Source: Betaproteobacteria bacterium
GTDB lineage: Bacteria; Pseudomonadota; Gammaproteobacteria; Burkholderiales; SG8-39
Assembly (NCBI GenBank): GCA_009693335.1
Contig: SHXK01000002.1
Span: 339-64,338 of the forward strand
Direction: 5' to 3'
Length of the DNA stretch: 64,000 nt
Both the position numbers and the translations under genes were made by a program. Below the pieces are notes generated by a model. That model was not told where the DNA came from, made no database searches, and saw only the letters and a list, made by a program, of their open reading frames with translations. The stretch's first letter is position 1. Each line of letters starts with the position of its first letter. Positions 48,257 to 56,978 of this stretch are shown piece after piece.

Positions 48257-48892
48257 ATGCAAAACAGCGCCACTTCCGTCTACGCCCTGCCCGATCTGGG
48301 TCAGGGACACCGCGGGCGCGTGTTCCGACGCCTCCTGGATGAGGTTGTGGCCCTAGTGCGACGGGGACGCATCCCCTCGGTGGCCGAAGTGGCTCTCGCC
48401 GCCAAGGTTTCCCGCGCCACCGCCTATCGTTACTTTCCCAGCCGCTCCAAGCTGGTGAGCGCCGTCATCGCCGAGGTGCTCGCGCCGGTGCGCCGCGCGG
48501 TGCCGCAGCAGGGCGAGCCGAAGCAGCGGCTGCGCGAGCTGCTTAAACGCACCTATTCCCGCTTCAGCGAATACGAGCCCCACATGCGGGCGGCGCTGCA
48601 GCTTGCCCTGGAGCACACGTCGCTGGAGGCCGCCGGCCTGCTGGAAGAGGAGCCCTTCCGCCGCGGTCAGCGCCAGGAGATCCTGAAAGTCACCCTCGCG
48701 CCGCTACGGGCTAAGCTCCCACCCAGAACATGGAACCGGCTGCTGAAGGCACTTGCGGTGGTGTATGGAATCGAGTCCATGATTGTTCTCAAGGATATCT
48801 GCGGCGCGAGCGACCGCGAGACCGAGGCGGTGGTGGGCTGGATGATGGACGCGCTGGTGGACGCGGCGCTACGGGATAAAATCAAGAAGTGA
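48257..48892 (+). CDS. TetR/AcrR family transcriptional regulator
   Basis: N-terminal HTH SVAEVALAAKVSRATAYRYFPSRSKL. Confidence 0.85.
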   Translation: MQNSATSVYALPDLGQGHRGRVFRRLLDEVVALVRRGRIPSVAEVALAAKVSRATAYRYFPSRSKLVSAVIAEVLAPVRRAVPQQGEPKQRLRELLKRTYSRFSEYEPHMRAALQLALEHTSLEAAGLLEEEPFRRGQRQEILKVTLAPLRAKLPPRTWNRLLKALAVVYGIESMIVLKDICGASDRETEAVVGWMMDALVDAALRDKIKK

Positions 48893-49887
48893 AATTCAAG
48901 TCAGGGGGCAGGGTGAAACTTTCCAGGATCTTTGCAGCGGCATTGGCCTCAGTGGCTGTACTTGTGGGCGCGCAGGCGCAGGCGCAGCCCTATCCCAGCA
49001 AACCGATCACCATGATCGTGCCGTTTGCGCCGGGCGGCATCGCCGACATCACCGGGCGGCCGCTCGCTGCGGCGATGGCCCGCCTTCTCGGCCAGAATAT
49101 CGTGGTGGACAACAAGCCGGGCGCGGGCGGCGCGGTCGGCCATGCGCTCGCCGCCAAAGCCAAGCCAGACGGCTACACCATCATGACGGCGCTTTCCTCG
49201 ATCACCGTGATTCCCGAGGCTGACAAGGTGAACGGTCGGCCCGCGTCCTACCAGATGTCGGATTTCACGCCGATCGCGCTGATCTCCGCGGACCCGACAG
49301 TGCTGCTGGTGCCCTACGACAGCCCGTGGAAGACGCTGCGGGACCTGGTCGAGGACGCCAAAGCCCGCCCCGGCAAAATCAGCTACGGCACCTCGGGCCT
49401 GTATGGCACCACGCACACCTGCCTAGAGATGTTCGCGCAGGCCGCCGGCATCAAGATGCTGCACGTGCCTTACAGCGGCGGTGGGCCCTCGATGACGGCG
49501 CTGCTTGCGAACCAGATCAACGTCACCGCGCAATCGCCCGGTGTCGCCAATCCGCATGTGAAATCGGGCAGGGTCCGCGCCCTCGCCTCGTGGGGCGCAC
49601 AGCGCCTGCCCTCGATTGCCGAGGTCCCGACGATGCGGGAATCCGGTTACGACGCGGAGTTCTACATCTGGGCGGCGCTCTTCACGCCGGCAGGCATCCC
49701 GGCCGAGGTGCGCGAGCGGCTTACCGTTGCCGTGCGCCAAGCCGTGCAATCGCAGGATTTCCAGAAGGCCATGACTGGCATGAACACGCCGATCAATTTC
49801 AAGGAAGGCAAGGATTTCGAATCCTTCCTGCAAAGCGACGGCACTCGCCTCGCCGAGGTAGTACGAAAAATGGGAAAAACGGAATGA
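48889..49887 (+). CDS. Bug family (TctC-like) periplasmic substrate-binding protein
   Basis: Signal peptide then YPSKPITMIVPFAPGGIADITGR. The GTG at 48889 overlaps the tetR stop; an alternative GTG lies at 48913. Confidence 0.88.
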   Translation: MKFKSGGRVKLSRIFAAALASVAVLVGAQAQAQPYPSKPITMIVPFAPGGIADITGRPLAAAMARLLGQNIVVDNKPGAGGAVGHALAAKAKPDGYTIMTALSSITVIPEADKVNGRPASYQMSDFTPIALISADPTVLLVPYDSPWKTLRDLVEDAKARPGKISYGTSGLYGTTHTCLEMFAQAAGIKMLHVPYSGGGPSMTALLANQINVTAQSPGVANPHVKSGRVRALASWGAQRLPSIAEVPTMRESGYDAEFYIWAALFTPAGIPAEVRERLTVAVRQAVQSQDFQKAMTGMNTPINFKEGKDFESFLQSDGTRLAEVVRKMGKTE

Positions 49888-50807
49888 AGATCACCAGGTT
49901 CATGGCGCAGGGCAGCGCCCGCATCGGCGCCCTCGAAGGCGACGAGGTCGTTGAGTTTCCGGGCTTCGCCAGCGCGCAAGAGTTGATCGCCGGCGGCGCA
50001 GCGGCGATGACCACCGCCCGTCAGGCGATTGCCTCCGGCAAGGGGCGCCGGCTGCTCGCGGACGTGAAGCTGCTCGCCCCGGTCGTGCCTTCAACCATCC
50101 TGTGCAGCGGCTCGAACTACACCGATCACAACAAGGAGAAAGCCAACACGCCGATCTCGGGCAAGGAGCCGGAGTTCTTCGTCAAGACCGCCGACTGCGT
50201 GATCGGGCCGGACGATGCGATCGCGCACGACGAGCGCCTCGCCAGAAAGCTCGACTGCGAGACCGAGCTCGCGATAGTAATCGGCAGCGCGGGACGTTTC
50301 ATTCCGCAGGAACGCGCGCTCGAGCACGTATTTGGCTACACCATCGTCAACGACGTGACCGCACGCGACCGGCAAGTGCGGCAAACCCCACAGGGGTTGA
50401 CGTGGTACGAACTGGGTCGCGGCAAGGCTTTCGACTGCTCCGCGCCGCTCGGGCCCTGCATCACCACCGCAGACGAGATTCCGGACCCGCAGGCGCTGCG
50501 CCTGCGCACGCGTATCAACGGCGAGTTGCGCCAGTCGTCCTCGACCGCGAACATGATCTGGAACTGCGCCCAGCTGGTGCACTTCTTCTCGACCAATTTC
50601 ACGCTCAAACCGGGCATGGTGATCATCACCGGCACGCCGGGCGGCACCGCCTGGTCGGTGGATCCGGAACTTGGCGGCAAGTGGATCGGCGGCGACGGCG
50701 GCGAGAAGCTGGTGCCAGCGAAGGGCTACCTCAAGCCCGGCGACGTGATTGAGTGCGAGCTGGAGCGCATCGGCGTGCTGAGAAATACCGTGCGCGCAGC
50801 GGCATAG
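49884..50807 (+). CDS. Fumarylacetoacetate hydrolase (FAH) family protein
   Basis: The listed ORF was trimmed to the ATG at 49884 (ATGA overlap). Motifs ETELAIVIG, GYTIVNDVTARD, PGMVIITGTPGG. Confidence 0.9.
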   Translation: MKITRFMAQGSARIGALEGDEVVEFPGFASAQELIAGGAAAMTTARQAIASGKGRRLLADVKLLAPVVPSTILCSGSNYTDHNKEKANTPISGKEPEFFVKTADCVIGPDDAIAHDERLARKLDCETELAIVIGSAGRFIPQERALEHVFGYTIVNDVTARDRQVRQTPQGLTWYELGRGKAFDCSAPLGPCITTADEIPDPQALRLRTRINGELRQSSSTANMIWNCAQLVHFFSTNFTLKPGMVIITGTPGGTAWSVDPELGGKWIGGDGGEKLVPAKGYLKPGDVIECELERIGVLRNTVRAAA

Positions 50808-50816
50808 GCACCGCCC

Positions 50817-51803
50817 ATGAAATTCAAACCCCTCGGGCGCAGCGGCGTGCAAGTCTCCGCACTGTGCTTTGGCACCATGTCCTTCGGCGGCGATGCCGAC
50901 GAAGCCAGCTCCGCTGCCATGTACCAGGCCTGCCGCGAAGCGGGCATCAACTTCTTCGATTGCGCTGACCAGTACAACAAAGGCCGGGCCGAGGAGATCC
51001 TCGGCCGACTGATGCAGGGGCACCGCGACGACCTGGTCATCACCACCAAGTGCTTCAACCCGACCGGCGAGGACGTGAATGCGCGCGGCACCTCGCGCCG
51101 GCACCTGATCCGCGCGGTGGAGGCGAGCCTGAAACGCCTGCGGACCGACCGCGTCGAGGTGCTGTTCCTGCACCACTACGACCAGCGCACCCCGCTCGAT
51201 GAATCCATGCGCGCGCTGGAAGACCTGGTGCGCTCCGGCAAAGCGCTGTATCCCGCGCTCAGCAACTACTCGGCGTGGCAAACACAAAGGGCGGTGGACC
51301 TCCAGGAGCGCAACAATTGGGCGCGTCTGCAACTGATCCAGCCGATGTACAGCCTGGTCAAGCGCCAGGCCGAAGTAGAGCTGCTGCCGATGGCCGAAGC
51401 CAACGGCATCGGCGTGATCCCCTACAGCCCCGCGGCCGCCGGCGTCCTGTCGGGAAAGTATGCCGGCGATGCCGGCGGGCAGAATGCGGGCCGCCTGAAG
51501 ACCAACAAGATGTACGCCGCCCGCTACGGCGAGCCCTGGGTGTTCGAGGTGGCCGAGAAATTCGTCGCCTTCTGCAAGCACAGGGGCCTGCATCCGGTGA
51601 GCACCGCGGTGGCCTGGGTCGGCGCCCACCCCGCCATCACCGCGCCCATCATCGGCGCACGCAATCTCGAGCAACTGCGGGACTCGCTCGACTCGGAGCG
51701 CATCGAAATGACCCCGGCGCTGCGCGCCGAAATCAGCGCGCTCTCGCGGGCGCCCGCGCCGGCCACCGACCGGTTCGAGGAAATAAAACCAGTGCAGGCC
51801 TAG
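50817..51803 (+). CDS. Aldo/keto reductase
   Basis: GINFFDCADQYNKGRAEEILG, LFLHHYD and IPYSPAAAGVLSGKY patterns. Confidence 0.92.
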   Translation: MKFKPLGRSGVQVSALCFGTMSFGGDADEASSAAMYQACREAGINFFDCADQYNKGRAEEILGRLMQGHRDDLVITTKCFNPTGEDVNARGTSRRHLIRAVEASLKRLRTDRVEVLFLHHYDQRTPLDESMRALEDLVRSGKALYPALSNYSAWQTQRAVDLQERNNWARLQLIQPMYSLVKRQAEVELLPMAEANGIGVIPYSPAAAGVLSGKYAGDAGGQNAGRLKTNKMYAARYGEPWVFEVAEKFVAFCKHRGLHPVSTAVAWVGAHPAITAPIIGARNLEQLRDSLDSERIEMTPALRAEISALSRAPAPATDRFEEIKPVQA

Positions 51804-51871
51804 CGACCATGTGCCACGCCCTGCGCTACCTCGGCCAGCCTGCGGGCGGCCGAGAACCACCTGGACTGAAG

Positions 51872-52363
51872 ATGAACATCAAAATAATCCTGTTCGCGTT
51901 AGCGTTTACGCCCATCGCGGCATACGCGCAGCAGGGCCTGTTCCAAACCAAGTCGATGACGCCGGACACCGCGTTGAGCGCCGCCCGCGCCGCCCTCGAG
52001 CATTGCCGCCAAGCCGGCTATCAGGTCGCGGTAGCCGTCGTCGATCGCTCCGGGGTTACGCAGGTTTTGCTGCGCGACCGCTTTGCCGGCGCGCACACCC
52101 TCGAGGTCGCGATCAACAAGGCGTGGACCGCCGCCAGCTTCAAGGTGGCGACTGCCGTGCTCGCCACTGAGACGCAGGCCGGTAAGCCGATGAGCGGCCT
52201 GCGCAGCCATCCGCGCCTGCTGGCCGTCGCCGGCGGACAACCGATCGAAGCCAGTGGTGCCCTACTCGGTGCGATCGGGGTCTCGGGCGCGCCCGGCGGC
52301 GAAGCCGACGACGCCTGCGCTGCCGCCGGTATCAAAGCGATCGCCGAAGCGATCGAGTTCTAA
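51872..52363 (+). CDS. GlcG/HbpS-like (DUF336) heme-binding protein with signal peptide
   Basis: The listed ORF was trimmed to the ATG at 51872. Motif GAIGVSGAPGGEADDACA. Confidence 0.8.
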   Translation: MNIKIILFALAFTPIAAYAQQGLFQTKSMTPDTALSAARAALEHCRQAGYQVAVAVVDRSGVTQVLLRDRFAGAHTLEVAINKAWTAASFKVATAVLATETQAGKPMSGLRSHPRLLAVAGGQPIEASGALLGAIGVSGAPGGEADDACAAAGIKAIAEAIEF

Positions 52364-52440
52364 GATAGCGTCCGGCATCAGGCCGCGCAGTCACTCCGTC
52401 ACGCCGCTTACACCCCACCCAAGGTACACTCCGCCGCACC

Positions 52441-54114
52441 ATGGCTCACGACCTGCTCATCAAGAACGGCCTGCTCATCGACGGCAGCGGAGCGCCGGCG
52501 CGCCATGCCGATGTGGCGATCGCAGATGGCAAGATCGTCCAGATAGGAAAAATCACCGATACGGCGAAAAAAGTCATCGACGCCACCGATCTGGCCGTAG
52601 CGCCCGGCTTCATCGACCCGCACACCCACTACGACGCGCAGATCTGCTGGGACGGCGCCCTGACGCCTTCCTCCTGGCACGGCGTGACCTCGGTGGTGAT
52701 GGGCAACTGCGGCGTCGGCATCGCGCCCTGCCGGCCAGAAACTCGCGAGATCGCGATGCGCGATCTGGTCAACGTGGAGGCCATCCCTTTCGAAGTGCTC
52801 GAGCAGGGCATCACCTGGGACTGGGAGAGCTTCCCGCAGTTCATGGATGCCGCCGCCGCCCGCAAGCCTTCGCTCAACCTCGGATTCCTCGCACCGCTGA
52901 CGCCGTTCCGCCACTACGTGATGGGTGAGGCTTCGATGGAGCGAGCGGCCTCGGTGCTTGAAACAAATGAAATAAAAAAATTATTGGGGGAAGCAATGGA
53001 TGCCGGCGCCTTCGGCTTCTCCAGCACCTTGCTCAACCAGCACATGGGCTTCGGCGGCCGCCCGCTCGCCTGCCGCAACGCCAGCCGCGAGGAACTGAAG
53101 GCCTACTGCAACGCGCTGAAAGAGCGCGGCAAGGGCGCGATCGAAATCGCCATGACCAAGCAGATCGGCGTGATGGACGACCCGGAGCTGGAGCTGCTCG
53201 ACTTCATGCTCACCGAAAGCGGGCGGCCGATCACCTTCATCGCGATGTTTGACCGCGACGACATTTCGGAAGCGGTGCGCACTTCCCTGCGTAAGGCCGC
53301 GCCGATGATCGCGCGCGGCGCACGGCCGCAGACTTCGCCGCTGCCGCTGACGCGCGAGATCAACATGCGCAACCCGTTCTCGTTCGCCGCTTTCCCCTCG
53401 TGGCAGCGCGTATTCGAAGACAAATCGAAGGCCGCGCAGGCTGCCGTCTATCGGGATGTTGCTTTTAGAAATCAATTCAGGGAAGAATTGAAGCGCCCCG
53501 CCGCTTTCGGCAACTGGGAACGCATCACGGTGCACGAAGTGAAGTCCGCAGCGTTGAAGAACCTGGAAGGGCAGACGGTGGCCGAGGTCGCAGCGGCGCA
53601 GGGCAAGGACGGCGTCGACGCTTTCCTCGATCTCACCTTGGCGGATGATTTGGACAACGAGTTCACCATGGTCTCGTTCAATAACCGCATCGACCGGATG
53701 GCCGAGATTCTCAATAATCCGGCCATGCTGCTCGGCCTGGGCGACGGCGGCGCGCACCTCGACATGCTGTGCGATTCGGGCTACCCCAGCTACGTGCTCG
53801 GCACCTGGGTGCGCGAGCGTAAGGTGCTGACGCTGGAACACGCGGTGCAGCGCATGACCTCGGACCCCGCGGATTTTTTCGGCATCAAGGACCGCGGGCG
53901 GCTGGCCCCTGGTCTGGCCGCGGACCTGGCGATCTTTGATCCCGCCACGGTCGGTTCGATGGGGCGCCCGGAACGACGCTACGACCTTCCCGGCGGCGCC
54001 AAGCGCATGGTGATGCGCTCGCAGGGCATCGAATACACGCTCGTGAACGGCGCCCTGACCTGGGAAAAGGGCGCCTTGACCGGCGCCGCAGCGGGAGAAG
54101 TATTGCGTTCCTGA
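52441..54114 (+). CDS. N-acyl-D-amino-acid deacylase (D-aminoacylase) family amidohydrolase
   Basis: DLLIKNGLLIDGSG...APGFIDPHTHYD and the C-terminal GRLAPGLAADLAIFD pattern. Confidence 0.88.
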   Translation: MAHDLLIKNGLLIDGSGAPARHADVAIADGKIVQIGKITDTAKKVIDATDLAVAPGFIDPHTHYDAQICWDGALTPSSWHGVTSVVMGNCGVGIAPCRPETREIAMRDLVNVEAIPFEVLEQGITWDWESFPQFMDAAAARKPSLNLGFLAPLTPFRHYVMGEASMERAASVLETNEIKKLLGEAMDAGAFGFSSTLLNQHMGFGGRPLACRNASREELKAYCNALKERGKGAIEIAMTKQIGVMDDPELELLDFMLTESGRPITFIAMFDRDDISEAVRTSLRKAAPMIARGARPQTSPLPLTREINMRNPFSFAAFPSWQRVFEDKSKAAQAAVYRDVAFRNQFREELKRPAAFGNWERITVHEVKSAALKNLEGQTVAEVAAAQGKDGVDAFLDLTLADDLDNEFTMVSFNNRIDRMAEILNNPAMLLGLGDGGAHLDMLCDSGYPSYVLGTWVRERKVLTLEHAVQRMTSDPADFFGIKDRGRLAPGLAADLAIFDPATVGSMGRPERRYDLPGGAKRMVMRSQGIEYTLVNGALTWEKGALTGAAAGEVLRS

Positions 54115-54125
54115 ACGGAACCACG

Positions 54126-56951
54126 ATGTCATCGGGCACGGAAATCAACGTCGAGAGACTGCTCAAGGTAGTCACCGAGGTTGCGCGCGAAGCACGGCCG
54201 CATGTCGAACCGCGGGTCGCCCTCGACGGTTCATTGGAAAAAGAACTCGGCCTCGATAGCCTGGCGCGCGTCGAGCTGGTGCTGCGCCTGGAGAAGGAAT
54301 TCGGCGTCGCCCTGCCCGAGCAGGCGCTGGCGACCAGCGAGACCCCGCGCGATCTGTTGCGCTTCCTGCTCGCCAGCGCCGGCCACGCGCCGCAGGCCGT
54401 GGACAGCCGCGCCAGCAGTGTCAGCAGCCTGGTACATAGCGAGGGCATGCGCGCACCCTCCGCGGCGCAGGCGTCCACGCTCATCGAGGCGCTGCAGTAC
54501 CACCTCGAGCGGCAACCGGACAGGTTGACTGTTTTTCTCTATGAAAATGAAACCGAAACACCCCTCAGCTATCGCGCGCTTTACGAGGGTGCGCTCGGCT
54601 ACGCGGCGCGGCTCGCTGAGCGCGGTCTGCAGCCCGGGCAGATGGTGGCGATCATGCTGCCAACCTGCAAGGAGTACCTGTATTCCTTCTACGGCGTGCT
54701 GCTGGCGGGCGGCGTACCGGTGCCGCTGTATCCACCGGCGCGGCTGACCACCATCGAAGACCACATGAAGCGCCACGTCGGCATCTTGAAGAGCGCCGGC
54801 GCCTCCATCATGATCACCATCCCGCAAGCCAAGCCGCTCGCCTATCTGCTGCGCGCGCAGGTGGAATCGTTACGTTTGATTCTGGTGCCTGATGAATTAA
54901 ATTCTTCTTCGGGGAAAAATTTCAAACCCTTCCACGGCAAGCCCGGCGACACGGGCTTTCTGCAGTACACCTCGGGCAGCACCGGCAATCCCAAGGGCGT
55001 AGTGCTGTCGCACGCCAACCTGATGGCCAACGTGCGCGCCATGGGCGCGGCAGTGAACGCCAATCCCGCGGACGTGTTCGTGAGCTGGTTGCCGCTGTAC
55101 CACGACCTGGGGTTGATCGGCGCCAACTTTGCATCGCTGGTGCTCGGTTTTCCAACCGTGCTGATGTCCCCGCTGGCCTTTCTATCGCGGCCCTCGAGCT
55201 GGCTGCGCGCCATCCACCGTCACCGCGGCACCATCTCCGGCGGCCCGAATTTCGCCTTCGAGCTGTGCCTGCGCCGCATCCCGGACGAAGACCTGCAAGG
55301 GGTCGATCTGTCCTCCTGGCGCTTCGCTTTCAACGCCGCCGAGCCGGTGAACCCGGACACCATCGTCGAGTTCGAAAAGCGCTTCGGCAAGTACGGGCTG
55401 CGCAAGAATTGCCTGTCGCCGTCCTACGGCCTGGCCGAATCCTCGGTAGGCGTGGCGATCACGGTGCCGGGCACGCCTTGGCGCGCTGACCGCCTCGAGC
55501 GCGAGCGCTTCACGCGCACGGGCGAGGCCATTGAAGCGAAGCCTGACGAGGTTTCGCCTCTCGTCGTCATTGGCTGCGGCACGCCCATCCCCGGTCACGA
55601 CATCCGCGTAGTGGATGCCGTGGGTCTGGAGCTGCCCGACCGTCAAGAAGGATTGCTGCAGTTCCGGGGACCGTCGTCCACCTCGGGCTACTACCGCAAT
55701 CCGGCAGCGACGAAAACCTTGTTCGACGACGAATGGGTCAACACCGGCGACCGCGCCTACCTCTCCGAAGGCACGTTGTTCATCACCGGCCGCGAGAAAG
55801 ACATCATCATCCGCGGCGGTCGCAACATCAGCCCTTACGAACTGGAGCAGGCGGTGGGCGGCCTGGCAGGGATCCGGCGCGGCTGCGTCGCGGTGTTCGG
55901 CAGCAAGGACGCGGCTACCGGCACCGAGCGCGTGGTGGTGCTGGCCGAGATGCGCGACCGCGACGCTACACGCCACGAGGACCTGAAGCGCATGATCAAC
56001 GACCTCGCGGTGGGTCTGATCGGCGCACCGGCAGACGACATCGTGCTGGCGCCGCCCAGCACCGTACCCAAGACCTCCAGCGGCAAGATCCGCCGCGTCG
56101 CGGCGCGCGAATTCTACGAACGCGGTCCCTCCGCGGTGATGGGTCAGGCGGTGTGGTTGCAGTTCGTGCGACTGATGCTTGCCGGCGCCGCCCCGCAACT
56201 GCGCCGCGGCCTGCGCACACTGGGTGGCGCCTTGTTCGCGCTGCGCGCTTATCTTGTTTTTATCGCCCTAGTGCCTTTTGCTCTTCTGGGCTCCATGTTC
56301 TTACCCGTAAAAATCTGCTGGAAGGTGGGGCGAACGGTATCGAAATGGTTCCTGATGCTTGCCGGGATTCCCGTGGCGGTCCGCGGCCAGGAAAACCTCA
56401 ACCGCGAAACACCCATCGTGCTGGCGGCGAATCACACCAGCTATCTGGATGCGCTGGTCCTGCTGGCCATACTCGACTACCGCGGCTATGCCTTCGTCGC
56501 CAAACGCGAGTTCCTGGACAATTTCCTCATGCGCGCGCTGCTCTCTGGCTTCGGCACCCAGTTCATCGAACGCTTCGATGTCGCGAAAAGCGCCGAGCAC
56601 GCGAACCAACTCGCCGAAGCGGCGCAGCGCGGGGTTTCACTGATCGTCTTCCCGGAAGGCACTCTCACGCGCCACACGGGACTCAGGGACTTCCGCACCG
56701 GCGCTTTCCAGGTCGCGGCGCAAACTGGCATCCCGGTGGCGCCGGTAGCGCTGCGCGGCATCCGCTCGGTGTTGCGCGATGGCACCTGGTACCTGCGCCG
56801 CGCGGCGGTGTCGGTGACCATCGGCGCGCCGCTCGCGCCCGAAGGCAGCGACTGGGCCGCCGCAGTAAAGTTGCGCGACGCGGTGCGCACCGAAATCCTC
56901 AGACACTGCGGCGAGCCCGACCTTGCCGCGGGCAGCAGCCGGGCGGACTAA
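54126..56951 (+). CDS. Tri-domain protein: acyl carrier domain + fatty-acyl-AMP ligase (FAAL-like) + TM segment + PlsC/LPLAT acyltransferase
   Basis: ACP motif LGLDSLARVE (Ser45, nt 54258..54260). Adenylation motifs YTSGSTGNPKGV, GEL-type core, PKTSSGKIRR. Hydrophobic helices near residues 690-760. Acyltransferase blocks ANHTSYLD and VFPEGT. Confidence 0.85.
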   Translation: MSSGTEINVERLLKVVTEVAREARPHVEPRVALDGSLEKELGLDSLARVELVLRLEKEFGVALPEQALATSETPRDLLRFLLASAGHAPQAVDSRASSVSSLVHSEGMRAPSAAQASTLIEALQYHLERQPDRLTVFLYENETETPLSYRALYEGALGYAARLAERGLQPGQMVAIMLPTCKEYLYSFYGVLLAGGVPVPLYPPARLTTIEDHMKRHVGILKSAGASIMITIPQAKPLAYLLRAQVESLRLILVPDELNSSSGKNFKPFHGKPGDTGFLQYTSGSTGNPKGVVLSHANLMANVRAMGAAVNANPADVFVSWLPLYHDLGLIGANFASLVLGFPTVLMSPLAFLSRPSSWLRAIHRHRGTISGGPNFAFELCLRRIPDEDLQGVDLSSWRFAFNAAEPVNPDTIVEFEKRFGKYGLRKNCLSPSYGLAESSVGVAITVPGTPWRADRLERERFTRTGEAIEAKPDEVSPLVVIGCGTPIPGHDIRVVDAVGLELPDRQEGLLQFRGPSSTSGYYRNPAATKTLFDDEWVNTGDRAYLSEGTLFITGREKDIIIRGGRNISPYELEQAVGGLAGIRRGCVAVFGSKDAATGTERVVVLAEMRDRDATRHEDLKRMINDLAVGLIGAPADDIVLAPPSTVPKTSSGKIRRVAAREFYERGPSAVMGQAVWLQFVRLMLAGAAPQLRRGLRTLGGALFALRAYLVFIALVPFALLGSMFLPVKICWKVGRTVSKWFLMLAGIPVAVRGQENLNRETPIVLAANHTSYLDALVLLAILDYRGYAFVAKREFLDNFLMRALLSGFGTQFIERFDVAKSAEHANQLAEAAQRGVSLIVFPEGTLTRHTGLRDFRTGAFQVAAQTGIPVAPVALRGIRSVLRDGTWYLRRAAVSVTIGAPLAPEGSDWAAAVKLRDAVRTEILRHCGEPDLAAGSSRAD

Positions 56952-56978
56952 CGCACGAGTGCGTTCCTGCTAACGCAC
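56950..56978. repeat. Copy B of the repeated palindromic motif AACGCAC-GA-GTGCGTT-CCTGCT-AACGCAC
   Basis: 16-bp perfect palindrome plus a third half-site. It spans the 18-nt gap between convergent genes and overlaps both stop codons. Confidence 0.6.

Follow-up and report, generated by a model that had tools for sequence, protein, structure and literature searches.

We describe a gene at positions 54126-56951 of the forward strand of a 64,000-nucleotide stretch of contig SHXK01000002.1 (the window), taken from the Betaproteobacteria assembly GCA_009693335.1, whose product joins a carrier domain, a fatty acyl-AMP ligase (FAAL), a membrane-anchoring hairpin and a PlsC-type lysophospholipid acyltransferase (LPLAT) in one polypeptide. 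We propose with moderate confidence, on the basis of its sequence and a structural model, that this protein is a membrane-anchored, coenzyme A (CoA)-independent and self-contained enzyme, which would convert a free fatty acid to acyl-AMP, bind it as a thioester to its own carrier and pass it to a lyso-glycerophospholipid. The more general form of this proposal, in which a free fatty acid would travel by way of the protein's own carrier to some membrane lipid acceptor, appears probable. It adds one more gene to a family that is already known, widespread and uncharacterised.

Translation of positions 54126-56951 gave one stop-free open reading frame (ORF) of 941 amino acids, and its ATG at 54126 agrees with the N-termini of aligned homologues. 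Three Pfam domains were found in the protein, each above its curated cut-off: PP-binding (residues 27-81, E 4.8e-11), AMP-binding (residues 125-523, E 3.2e-67), and Acyltransferase (PF01553, residues 750-876, E 2.5e-29). The AlphaFold2 model of the 941-residue protein reached a mean pLDDT of 88.8 and a pTM of 0.80, and the features described below all lie on the forward strand in the order carrier, FAAL, membrane hairpin and LPLAT. The original prediction, made from the letters of the window, had described a carrier domain with an LGLDS motif, a FAAL-like domain and a C-terminal PlsC-type acyltransferase; Pfam and the motif positions confirmed all three, with LGLDS at residues 41-45, NHTSYLD at 769-775 and FPEGT at 842-846. 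Conservation was read from an alignment of 72 family members drawn from many phyla, with no more than 42-53% identity among them. Across all 72, Ser45 of the carrier, Lys654 of the A10 motif of the FAAL domain, and His770, Asp775, Arg816 and Glu844 of the acyltransferase are invariant. Since the catalytic residues are kept in sequences this divergent, selection appears to act on all three activities.

The same three-domain architecture is present in all 120 best database homologues, which are 78-87% identical to our protein. Within the genus, 21 of 24 genomes carry the fusion, the apparent exceptions being genes split at contig ends, and it recurs at about 50% identity in two further families of the order. 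A database query for the architecture, which the original prediction had suggested, thus found it to be widespread, in at least 598 species-representative genomes from Alpha-, Beta- and Gammaproteobacteria, Desulfobacterota, Nitrospira, Acidobacteriota, Entotheonella, Actinomycetota, and Planctomycetia. Cultured carriers include Cupriavidus, Methylocystis, Halomonas, Mesorhizobium delmotii, Thiocystis, Imhoffiella, Malikia, Zobellella, Neptuniibacter, and Marinobacterium. Hundreds of independent assemblies keep this architecture, which rules out an assembly artefact and with it the concern that the ORF might be a misassembled fusion of separate genes. A few family members depart from the usual form: some, such as the one at L074:7962-11072, are longer, at 1037-1066 amino acids, the one at L076:8001-11630 is broken by five stop codons, and P0151 carries about 75 additional N-terminal residues ahead of its carrier domain. 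The fusion has also been noticed before. "A fusion with lysophospholipid acyltransferases" is listed among unusual FAAL architectures (PMC8460268), and the FAAL-LPLAT fusion is mentioned in passing in a FAAL survey (PMC12820801), in both cases without an assigned function. Given these two reports and how very common the family is, the novelty implied by the original prediction was overstated.

The FAAL domain (residues 113-668, positions 54462-56129) was delimited with Pfam, NCBIfam, PDB and Foldseek matches. A motif search placed the A3 motif YTSGSTGNPKG at residues 281-291, and the A10 motif KTSSGKIRR, which contains Lys654 (72/72), spans residues 649-657. The top NCBIfam model was "fatty acyl-AMP ligase" (PRK09192) at 401.5 bits, below its cut-off of 600, and PRK05850 scored 317 bits, below its cut-off of 775. 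The best PDB sequence matches are all FAALs, with E-values of 1e-77 to 1e-83, against 1e-33 or worse for acyl-CoA ligases; these FAALs are the Synechococcus olefin synthase FAAL (7r7e), the Legionella FAAL (3kxw), and the E. coli FAAL (3pbk). The last of these was also the best Foldseek match to the model (target-normalised TM-score 0.91, root-mean-square deviation 2.9 Å, 557 columns), and the first 31 PDB matches in that search are FAALs except for the McyG adenylation domain.

Three features define FAALs: an insertion in the N-terminal domain and a helix, both specific to these enzymes, and a set of bulky residues shutting the canonical CoA pocket, which in the E. coli enzyme (EcFAAL) are W224, F279 and M231, plus P226 (PMC8460268). 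Alignment of our protein to 3pbk placed the insertion at residues ~443-484 and the helix, PLAFLSRP, at residues 349-356, and ran without gaps through the insertion (YGLAE to GTPIPG) and the helix. Once a +1 numbering offset was allowed for, EcFAAL W224, F279, M231 and P226 mapped in the sequence alignment to W321, F376, L328 and P323. W321, P323, F376, P349, F352, and P356 are invariant in the family alignment, and position 328, Leu in our protein, is Met in 66 and Leu in 6 of the 72 sequences; of the five mapped CoA-exclusion residues, four are invariant and the fifth is Met or Leu. By these sequence features the adenylation domain is a FAAL, one that falls outside the curated NCBIfam subfamilies.

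The carrier domain, of the PP-binding or acyl carrier protein (ACP)-like type, covers residues 9-84 (positions 54150-54377) and scored 43.2 bits against Pfam PF00550, where the cut-off is 20.8; NCBIfam ACP models gave about 35 bits. AlphaFold2 modelled it as a helical bundle with helices at residues 9-23, 45-59, 65-70, and 74-84. By motif, Ser45 in LGLDS (nucleotides 54258-54260) is the phosphopantetheine-attachment serine. It is present in 72 of 72 family sequences and Asp44 in 69, and the flanking G-x-D-S-L is nearly invariant. Conservation is lowest in the segment between carrier and FAAL, residues 85-112 (positions 54378-54461), where the mean column identity is 0.24; its length varies from 23 to 36 residues across the family, and its pLDDT falls below 50 at residues 93-98. 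On account of this poor conservation, variable length and low pLDDT, we regard it as a flexible tether that leaves the carrier mobile. The source genome (metagenome-assembled, 2.06 Mb, 83% complete) encodes two phosphopantetheinyl transferases, one AcpS-like and one HetI/Sfp-like (240 amino acids, L109:1393-2115, reverse strand, contig C101), which makes conversion to the holo-carrier feasible. On that same contig, an AMP-binding gene (G000:C101:5517-6011) lies about 3.5 kb from the HetI/Sfp-like transferase gene, and the two possibly represent a second carrier-dependent pathway of this small genome.

Between the FAAL and the acyltransferase, residues 669-748 (positions 56130-56369) form a putative membrane-anchoring helical hairpin, as judged by hydropathy and the AlphaFold2 model. 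The original prediction had counted two or three hydrophobic helices here; a hydrophobic segment is indeed present, as a single strongly hydrophobic stretch at residues 696-732 (19-residue Kyte-Doolittle peak of 2.4 at residues 710-728). It is modelled within a long helix (residues 676-725) that turns at Pro726 and is followed by a returning one (residues 728-746), which enters the acyltransferase fold. In the family, the flanks on both sides of the hydrophobic stretch carry a net positive charge (medians +3 and +4). From the single hydrophobic stretch, the positive flanks on both sides and the hairpin model, we infer that the catalytic domains lie on one side of the membrane: the hairpin would be re-entrant or monotopic, and the carrier, FAAL and acyltransferase would all face the cytoplasm. 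Such a hairpin would recall the pair of membrane helices at the N-terminus of PlsC (5kym).

The C-terminal domain (residues 749-930, positions 56370-56915) is a PlsC-type (LPLAT/AGPAT) acyltransferase with a score of 102 bits against Pfam PF01553, whose cut-off is 23. It contains motif I, NHTSYLD, at residues 769-775 (H770 and D775, both 72/72); motif II, FIER, at residues 813-816 (R816, 72/72); motif III, FPEGT, at residues 842-846 (E844, 72/72); and, by motif search, motif IV, IPVAPVAL, at residues 869-876. It matches the structure of Thermotoga maritima PlsC (5kym, E 3e-17).

The mechanism we propose joins these parts as follows. A phosphopantetheinyl transferase would turn Ser45 of the carrier into its holo form, and the FAAL domain would adenylate a free long-chain fatty acid. 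With the CoA pocket blocked, the acyl group would be passed only to the phosphopantetheine arm of the carrier in cis, which could then swing on its flexible linker of about 25 residues. The acyl-S-carrier would dock on the PlsC-type domain, which the hairpin would keep on the cytoplasmic side of the inner membrane, and the His770/Asp775 dyad would acylate a lyso-glycerophospholipid at its free hydroxyl. This acceptor would most likely be lyso-phosphatidylethanolamine or lyso-phosphatidylglycerol, possibly lysophosphatidic acid, with its phosphate bound by Arg816. By analogy, this chemistry would be that of E. coli Aas, namely fatty-acid salvage and lysophospholipid repair, built from different parts.

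E. coli Aas (NF005959) is a bifunctional 2-acyl-GPE acyltransferase/acyl-ACP synthetase that works with the flippase LplT, and triple fusions of LplT, acyltransferase and synthetase are also represented (NF006386 and NF005291). In common with Aas, our protein is predicted to pair a domain that adenylates fatty acids with ATP and a PlsC-type HX4D acyltransferase located at the inner membrane, and to link the two steps through an acyl-S-phosphopantetheine intermediate. It differs from Aas in its reversed order (carrier, ligase, acyltransferase) and in having its carrier fused in cis, whereas Aas uses free ACP, although our protein may also use free ACP besides its own carrier. Its adenylating domain is, moreover, a FAAL, by the insertion, helix and blocked CoA pocket seen in alignment; the strongest matches to Aas models are confined to the adenylation block, at 208 bits for NF006386 (cut-off 1221) and 52.9 bits for NF005959 (cut-off 886). 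In some genomes an MFS transporter gene adjoins the fusion gene, which recalls the lplT-aas pair, but this recurrent neighbour is ATG22-like, unlike LplT.

The other FAALs compared are stand-alone enzymes or load polyketide synthases and non-ribosomal peptide synthetases (3pbk, 3kxw, 7r7e and the mycobacterial FadD32 and FadD28). Along the full FAAL domain our protein is about 30% identical to them, with target-normalised TM-scores of up to 0.91, and it shares their FAAL-specific insertion, helix and bulky pocket residues. Those enzymes feed polyketide, lipopeptide or mycolate machinery, and a fused carrier, where there is one, follows the FAAL; in our protein the carrier precedes the FAAL, and the acyl group is proposed to go to a glycerolipid-type acyltransferase. 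PlsC (5kym) belongs to the same acyltransferase family and likewise has motifs I-IV and a predicted membrane helix pair before the catalytic domain, but it is a stand-alone protein of about 250 amino acids that draws acyl-ACP or acyl-CoA from the cellular pool, whereas the fusion protein brings its own carrier. The nearest studied multidomain analogue is ElbD of Myxococcus xanthus, an ether-lipid biosynthesis protein that also holds acyl-activating, ACP and AGPAT-like domains in one polypeptide and whose ACP and activating activities were demonstrated in vitro (PMC9131029). ElbD has an N-terminal FAR-like reductase, places its carrier after the ligase and is soluble; our protein lacks a reductase domain, has its carrier first and contains the hairpin.

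The gene starts 11 nucleotides after the stop codon of a D-aminoacylase-like amidohydrolase gene on the same strand (Amidohydro_3 by Pfam, positions 52441-54114). The original prediction had supposed that this neighbour might supply the acyl group from a deacylated N-acyl compound; the juxtaposition is real, but the functional link did not hold up, the adjacency not being conserved. Neighbours were checked at 8 loci from within the genus or order, at 18 further close loci and at 80 loci across phyla. The Amidohydro_3 gene was not adjacent in any of the 8 loci of the same genus or order. In two congeners (L018 and L065), an orthologous amidohydrolase (89-90% identity) is parted from the fusion gene by one or two TctC genes, and the arrangement in the window therefore appears to be a local rearrangement; it looks like a local deletion. 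The run at positions 48257-54114 (forward strand) comprises TetR, a TctC-family binding protein, a fumarylacetoacetate-hydrolase-family enzyme, an aldo-keto reductase, a GlcG/HbpS-like protein, and the Amidohydro_3 protein. Congeners retain the aldo-keto reductase, GlcG and amidohydrolase genes together with extra TctC genes, and the region is a variable catabolic island. Downstream, a short inverted repeat, AACGCAC-GA-GTGCGTT, lies in the region 56949-56975 between the convergent stops of the fusion gene and a PaaK-like gene, and CTAACGCACGA partly repeats it. The repeat may act as a terminator in both directions or as a site where a protein binds; a promoter and terminator scan found nothing above shuffled background and did not flag it.

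Across the 80 loci from many phyla, all-against-all clustering of the ORFs within 8 kb gave no cluster, besides the fusion itself, in more than 14 loci, and it is this lack of a conserved neighbour that suggests the protein is self-sufficient. The 117 flanking ORFs that passed a length and composition filter matched 147 Pfam families, the most frequent being ATG22/MFS (7) and FadD-like ligase (4), and no amidohydrolase was among the frequent families. A FadD-like long-chain ligase gene adjoins the fusion gene in 4 loci; in the window it is not adjacent. The sole recurrent neighbour, in 11 of the 80 loci, encodes an ATG22-like (UMF1) MFS transporter. Eight of these genes lie within about 430 nucleotides of the fusion gene, six of the eight on the same strand and two with overlapping or abutting reading frames; the 11 genes include those at L104:6700-7992, L093:10830-12173, L057:11235-12524, L106:5917-7236, L047:6173-7444, and L101:10891-12276. 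These 11 loci are spread over Beta-, Alpha- and Gammaproteobacteria, Syntrophus and Desulfobulbaceae, with varied orientation. As there is one copy of such a gene in the 2 Mb source genome (on another contig), adjacency by chance would be well under 1%. In the order, both of the two genomes with the fusion have an ATG22-like gene, against 4 of 14 without it, a very small sample. We know of no function for bacterial ATG22-like transporters.

That the protein is a machine for activation and transfer through a carrier in cis, as originally predicted, fits every sequence test run; the acceptor is the part that the sequence does not decide. Several findings hint at a lysophospholipid. The domain has all four AGPAT motifs, among them motif II with its phosphate-binding arginine; the next NCBIfam match after the generic AGPAT model is to the acyltransferase block of NF006386, a model of the Aas type (74 bits, cut-off 1221); the ATG22-like MFS gene that adjoins the fusion gene in 11 of the 80 loci recalls lplT-aas; and an NCBIfam scan found no canonical Aas above cut-off in the 83% complete source genome. 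Other findings weigh against this assignment, and some against the wider mechanism. The C-terminal domain stays below the cut-off of every specific NCBIfam model (PlsC, Aas, OlsA, OlsF, and GlsA), with E. coli Aas itself (NF005959) at 33 bits against 886. When residues 670-941 were searched against 1.84 billion representatives, 335 matched at E ≤1e-30. Full-length fusions of 917-995 amino acids make up about one third of the best 150, and the 10 mid-length or over-long ones scanned among these 150 all turned out to be the same fusion in truncated or extended form, which leaves no characterised close relative to serve as a guide. Literature searches likewise returned passing mentions only and no experimentally tested family member. 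The MFS neighbour is absent from the window and from 69 of the 80 loci, and its MFS family is not that of LplT. Finally, every step of the mechanism is drawn from sequence and model.

A further point on the same side concerns a second protein of the genus. In 14 of 31 genus genomes we found a fusion of an LplT-like MFS transporter to a PlsC-type acyltransferase, about 630 amino acids long and without an acyl-ACP synthetase domain, such as the 628-residue protein at L113:3125-5011 (reverse strand; G023 contig C3). It matches positions 7-602 of NF006386 (E about 1e-142), and its acyltransferase is only 30% identical to that of the carrier-FAAL-LPLAT fusion. Lysophospholipid repair may therefore already be covered in those congeners; the LplT-acyltransferase fusion was not found in the source genome (83% complete). 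The 600-720-residue representatives, considered as LplT-acyltransferase fusions of this sort, proved to be 5'-truncated fragments of the carrier-FAAL-LPLAT fusion. Given this and the low identity, we rejected the idea that the two kinds of fusion have an acyltransferase type in common.

Lysophosphatidic acid is a less likely acceptor. The protein would then carry out the same activation and self-loading and act as a PlsC with its own donor, channelling exogenous fatty acids straight into the de novo synthesis of phosphatidic acid while bypassing the acyl-ACP of type II fatty acid synthesis (FASII) and acyl-CoA. The best C-terminal model is the generic AGPAT domain TIGR00530, at 96.4 bits just below its cut-off of 102.95, the only solved relative is T. 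maritima PlsC, and the motif-II arginine is invariant. Yet the score for the E. coli PlsC equivalog (NF011593) is no more than 38.9 bits (cut-off 501), and the genome's one other PF01553 gene, on contig C119, is an ordinary, separate PlsC-like gene. The AGPAT motifs are, besides, common to enzymes that act on lysophospholipids, and so do not discriminate between the two acceptors. O-acylation of a lyso-aminolipid, such as lyso-ornithine lipid in an OlsA-like reaction, or of some other non-phospholipid, with the fatty acid coming from the FAAL and carrier, seems very improbable. The OlsA equivalogs do match the C-terminal domain, at 62 and 45 bits, and a review notes that FAAL/FACL involvement in aminolipid synthesis is not yet established (PMC11631085), which we counted in favour; the scores are nevertheless far under the cut-off of 300, and no aminolipid gene is among the most frequent neighbour families of the 80 loci. 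The OlsB-type domain PF13444, whose enzyme makes lyso-ornithine lipid, occurs in 4 of 31 genus genomes and not in the source genome. Its distribution does not follow that of the fusion (21 of 24), which makes an OlsA-like role unlikely.

The domain content shared with ElbD raises the alternative of an enzyme of an ether or otherwise unusual lipid pathway, or of a loading module that hands its acyl group to enzymes in trans, and reductase-less ElbD-like proteins are reported outside myxobacteria (PMC9131029). We consider this very improbable: Pfam finds no reductase (FAR/NAD-binding) domain in our protein, the domain order differs in that the carrier comes first, and ElbD purifies as a soluble protein, whereas the hydrophobic hairpin is conserved here. 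Nor do elb-like, polyketide synthase or non-ribosomal peptide synthetase genes recur beside the fusion gene in the 80 loci. Scarcely credible is a functional gene pair in which the protein re-uses a fatty acid released from an N-acyl compound by the neighbouring D-aminoacylase. For it speak the 11-nucleotide spacing on one strand and the Amidohydro_3 assignment of the upstream gene; against it, the adjacency is missing in all 8 related loci, TctC genes intervene in L018 and L065, and the amidohydrolase subfamily match is weak (PRK09061, 98 bits against an NCBIfam cut-off of 340). We rejected the pairing, as it is conserved neither in these 8 loci nor in the 18 further or the 80 cross-phyla loci.

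Within its family the gene studied here is an ordinary one, and its genomic surroundings give no further hint of its function. If transfer from the protein's own carrier to a membrane lipid is right, the family would provide a widespread one-protein route by which free fatty acids enter membrane lipids without CoA or the housekeeping ACP. This bears on lipid recycling by environmental bacteria, on the bypass of FASII by exogenous fatty acids, and on the roles of FAALs outside polyketide and lipopeptide pathways. A tentative extension, which we regard as possible rather than likely, is that the family and the ATG22-like MFS transporters form a second, independently evolved system for lysophospholipid repair and fatty-acid salvage, analogous to LplT/Aas. 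If so, exogenous or released fatty acids would enter membrane lipids while bypassing both the CoA pool, and with it beta-oxidation, and the FASII ACP pool, and the bacterial ATG22-like transporters would gain a first function as lysolipid or fatty-acid flippases. With a single gene, clear catalytic residues and cultured carriers, the family is easy to test.

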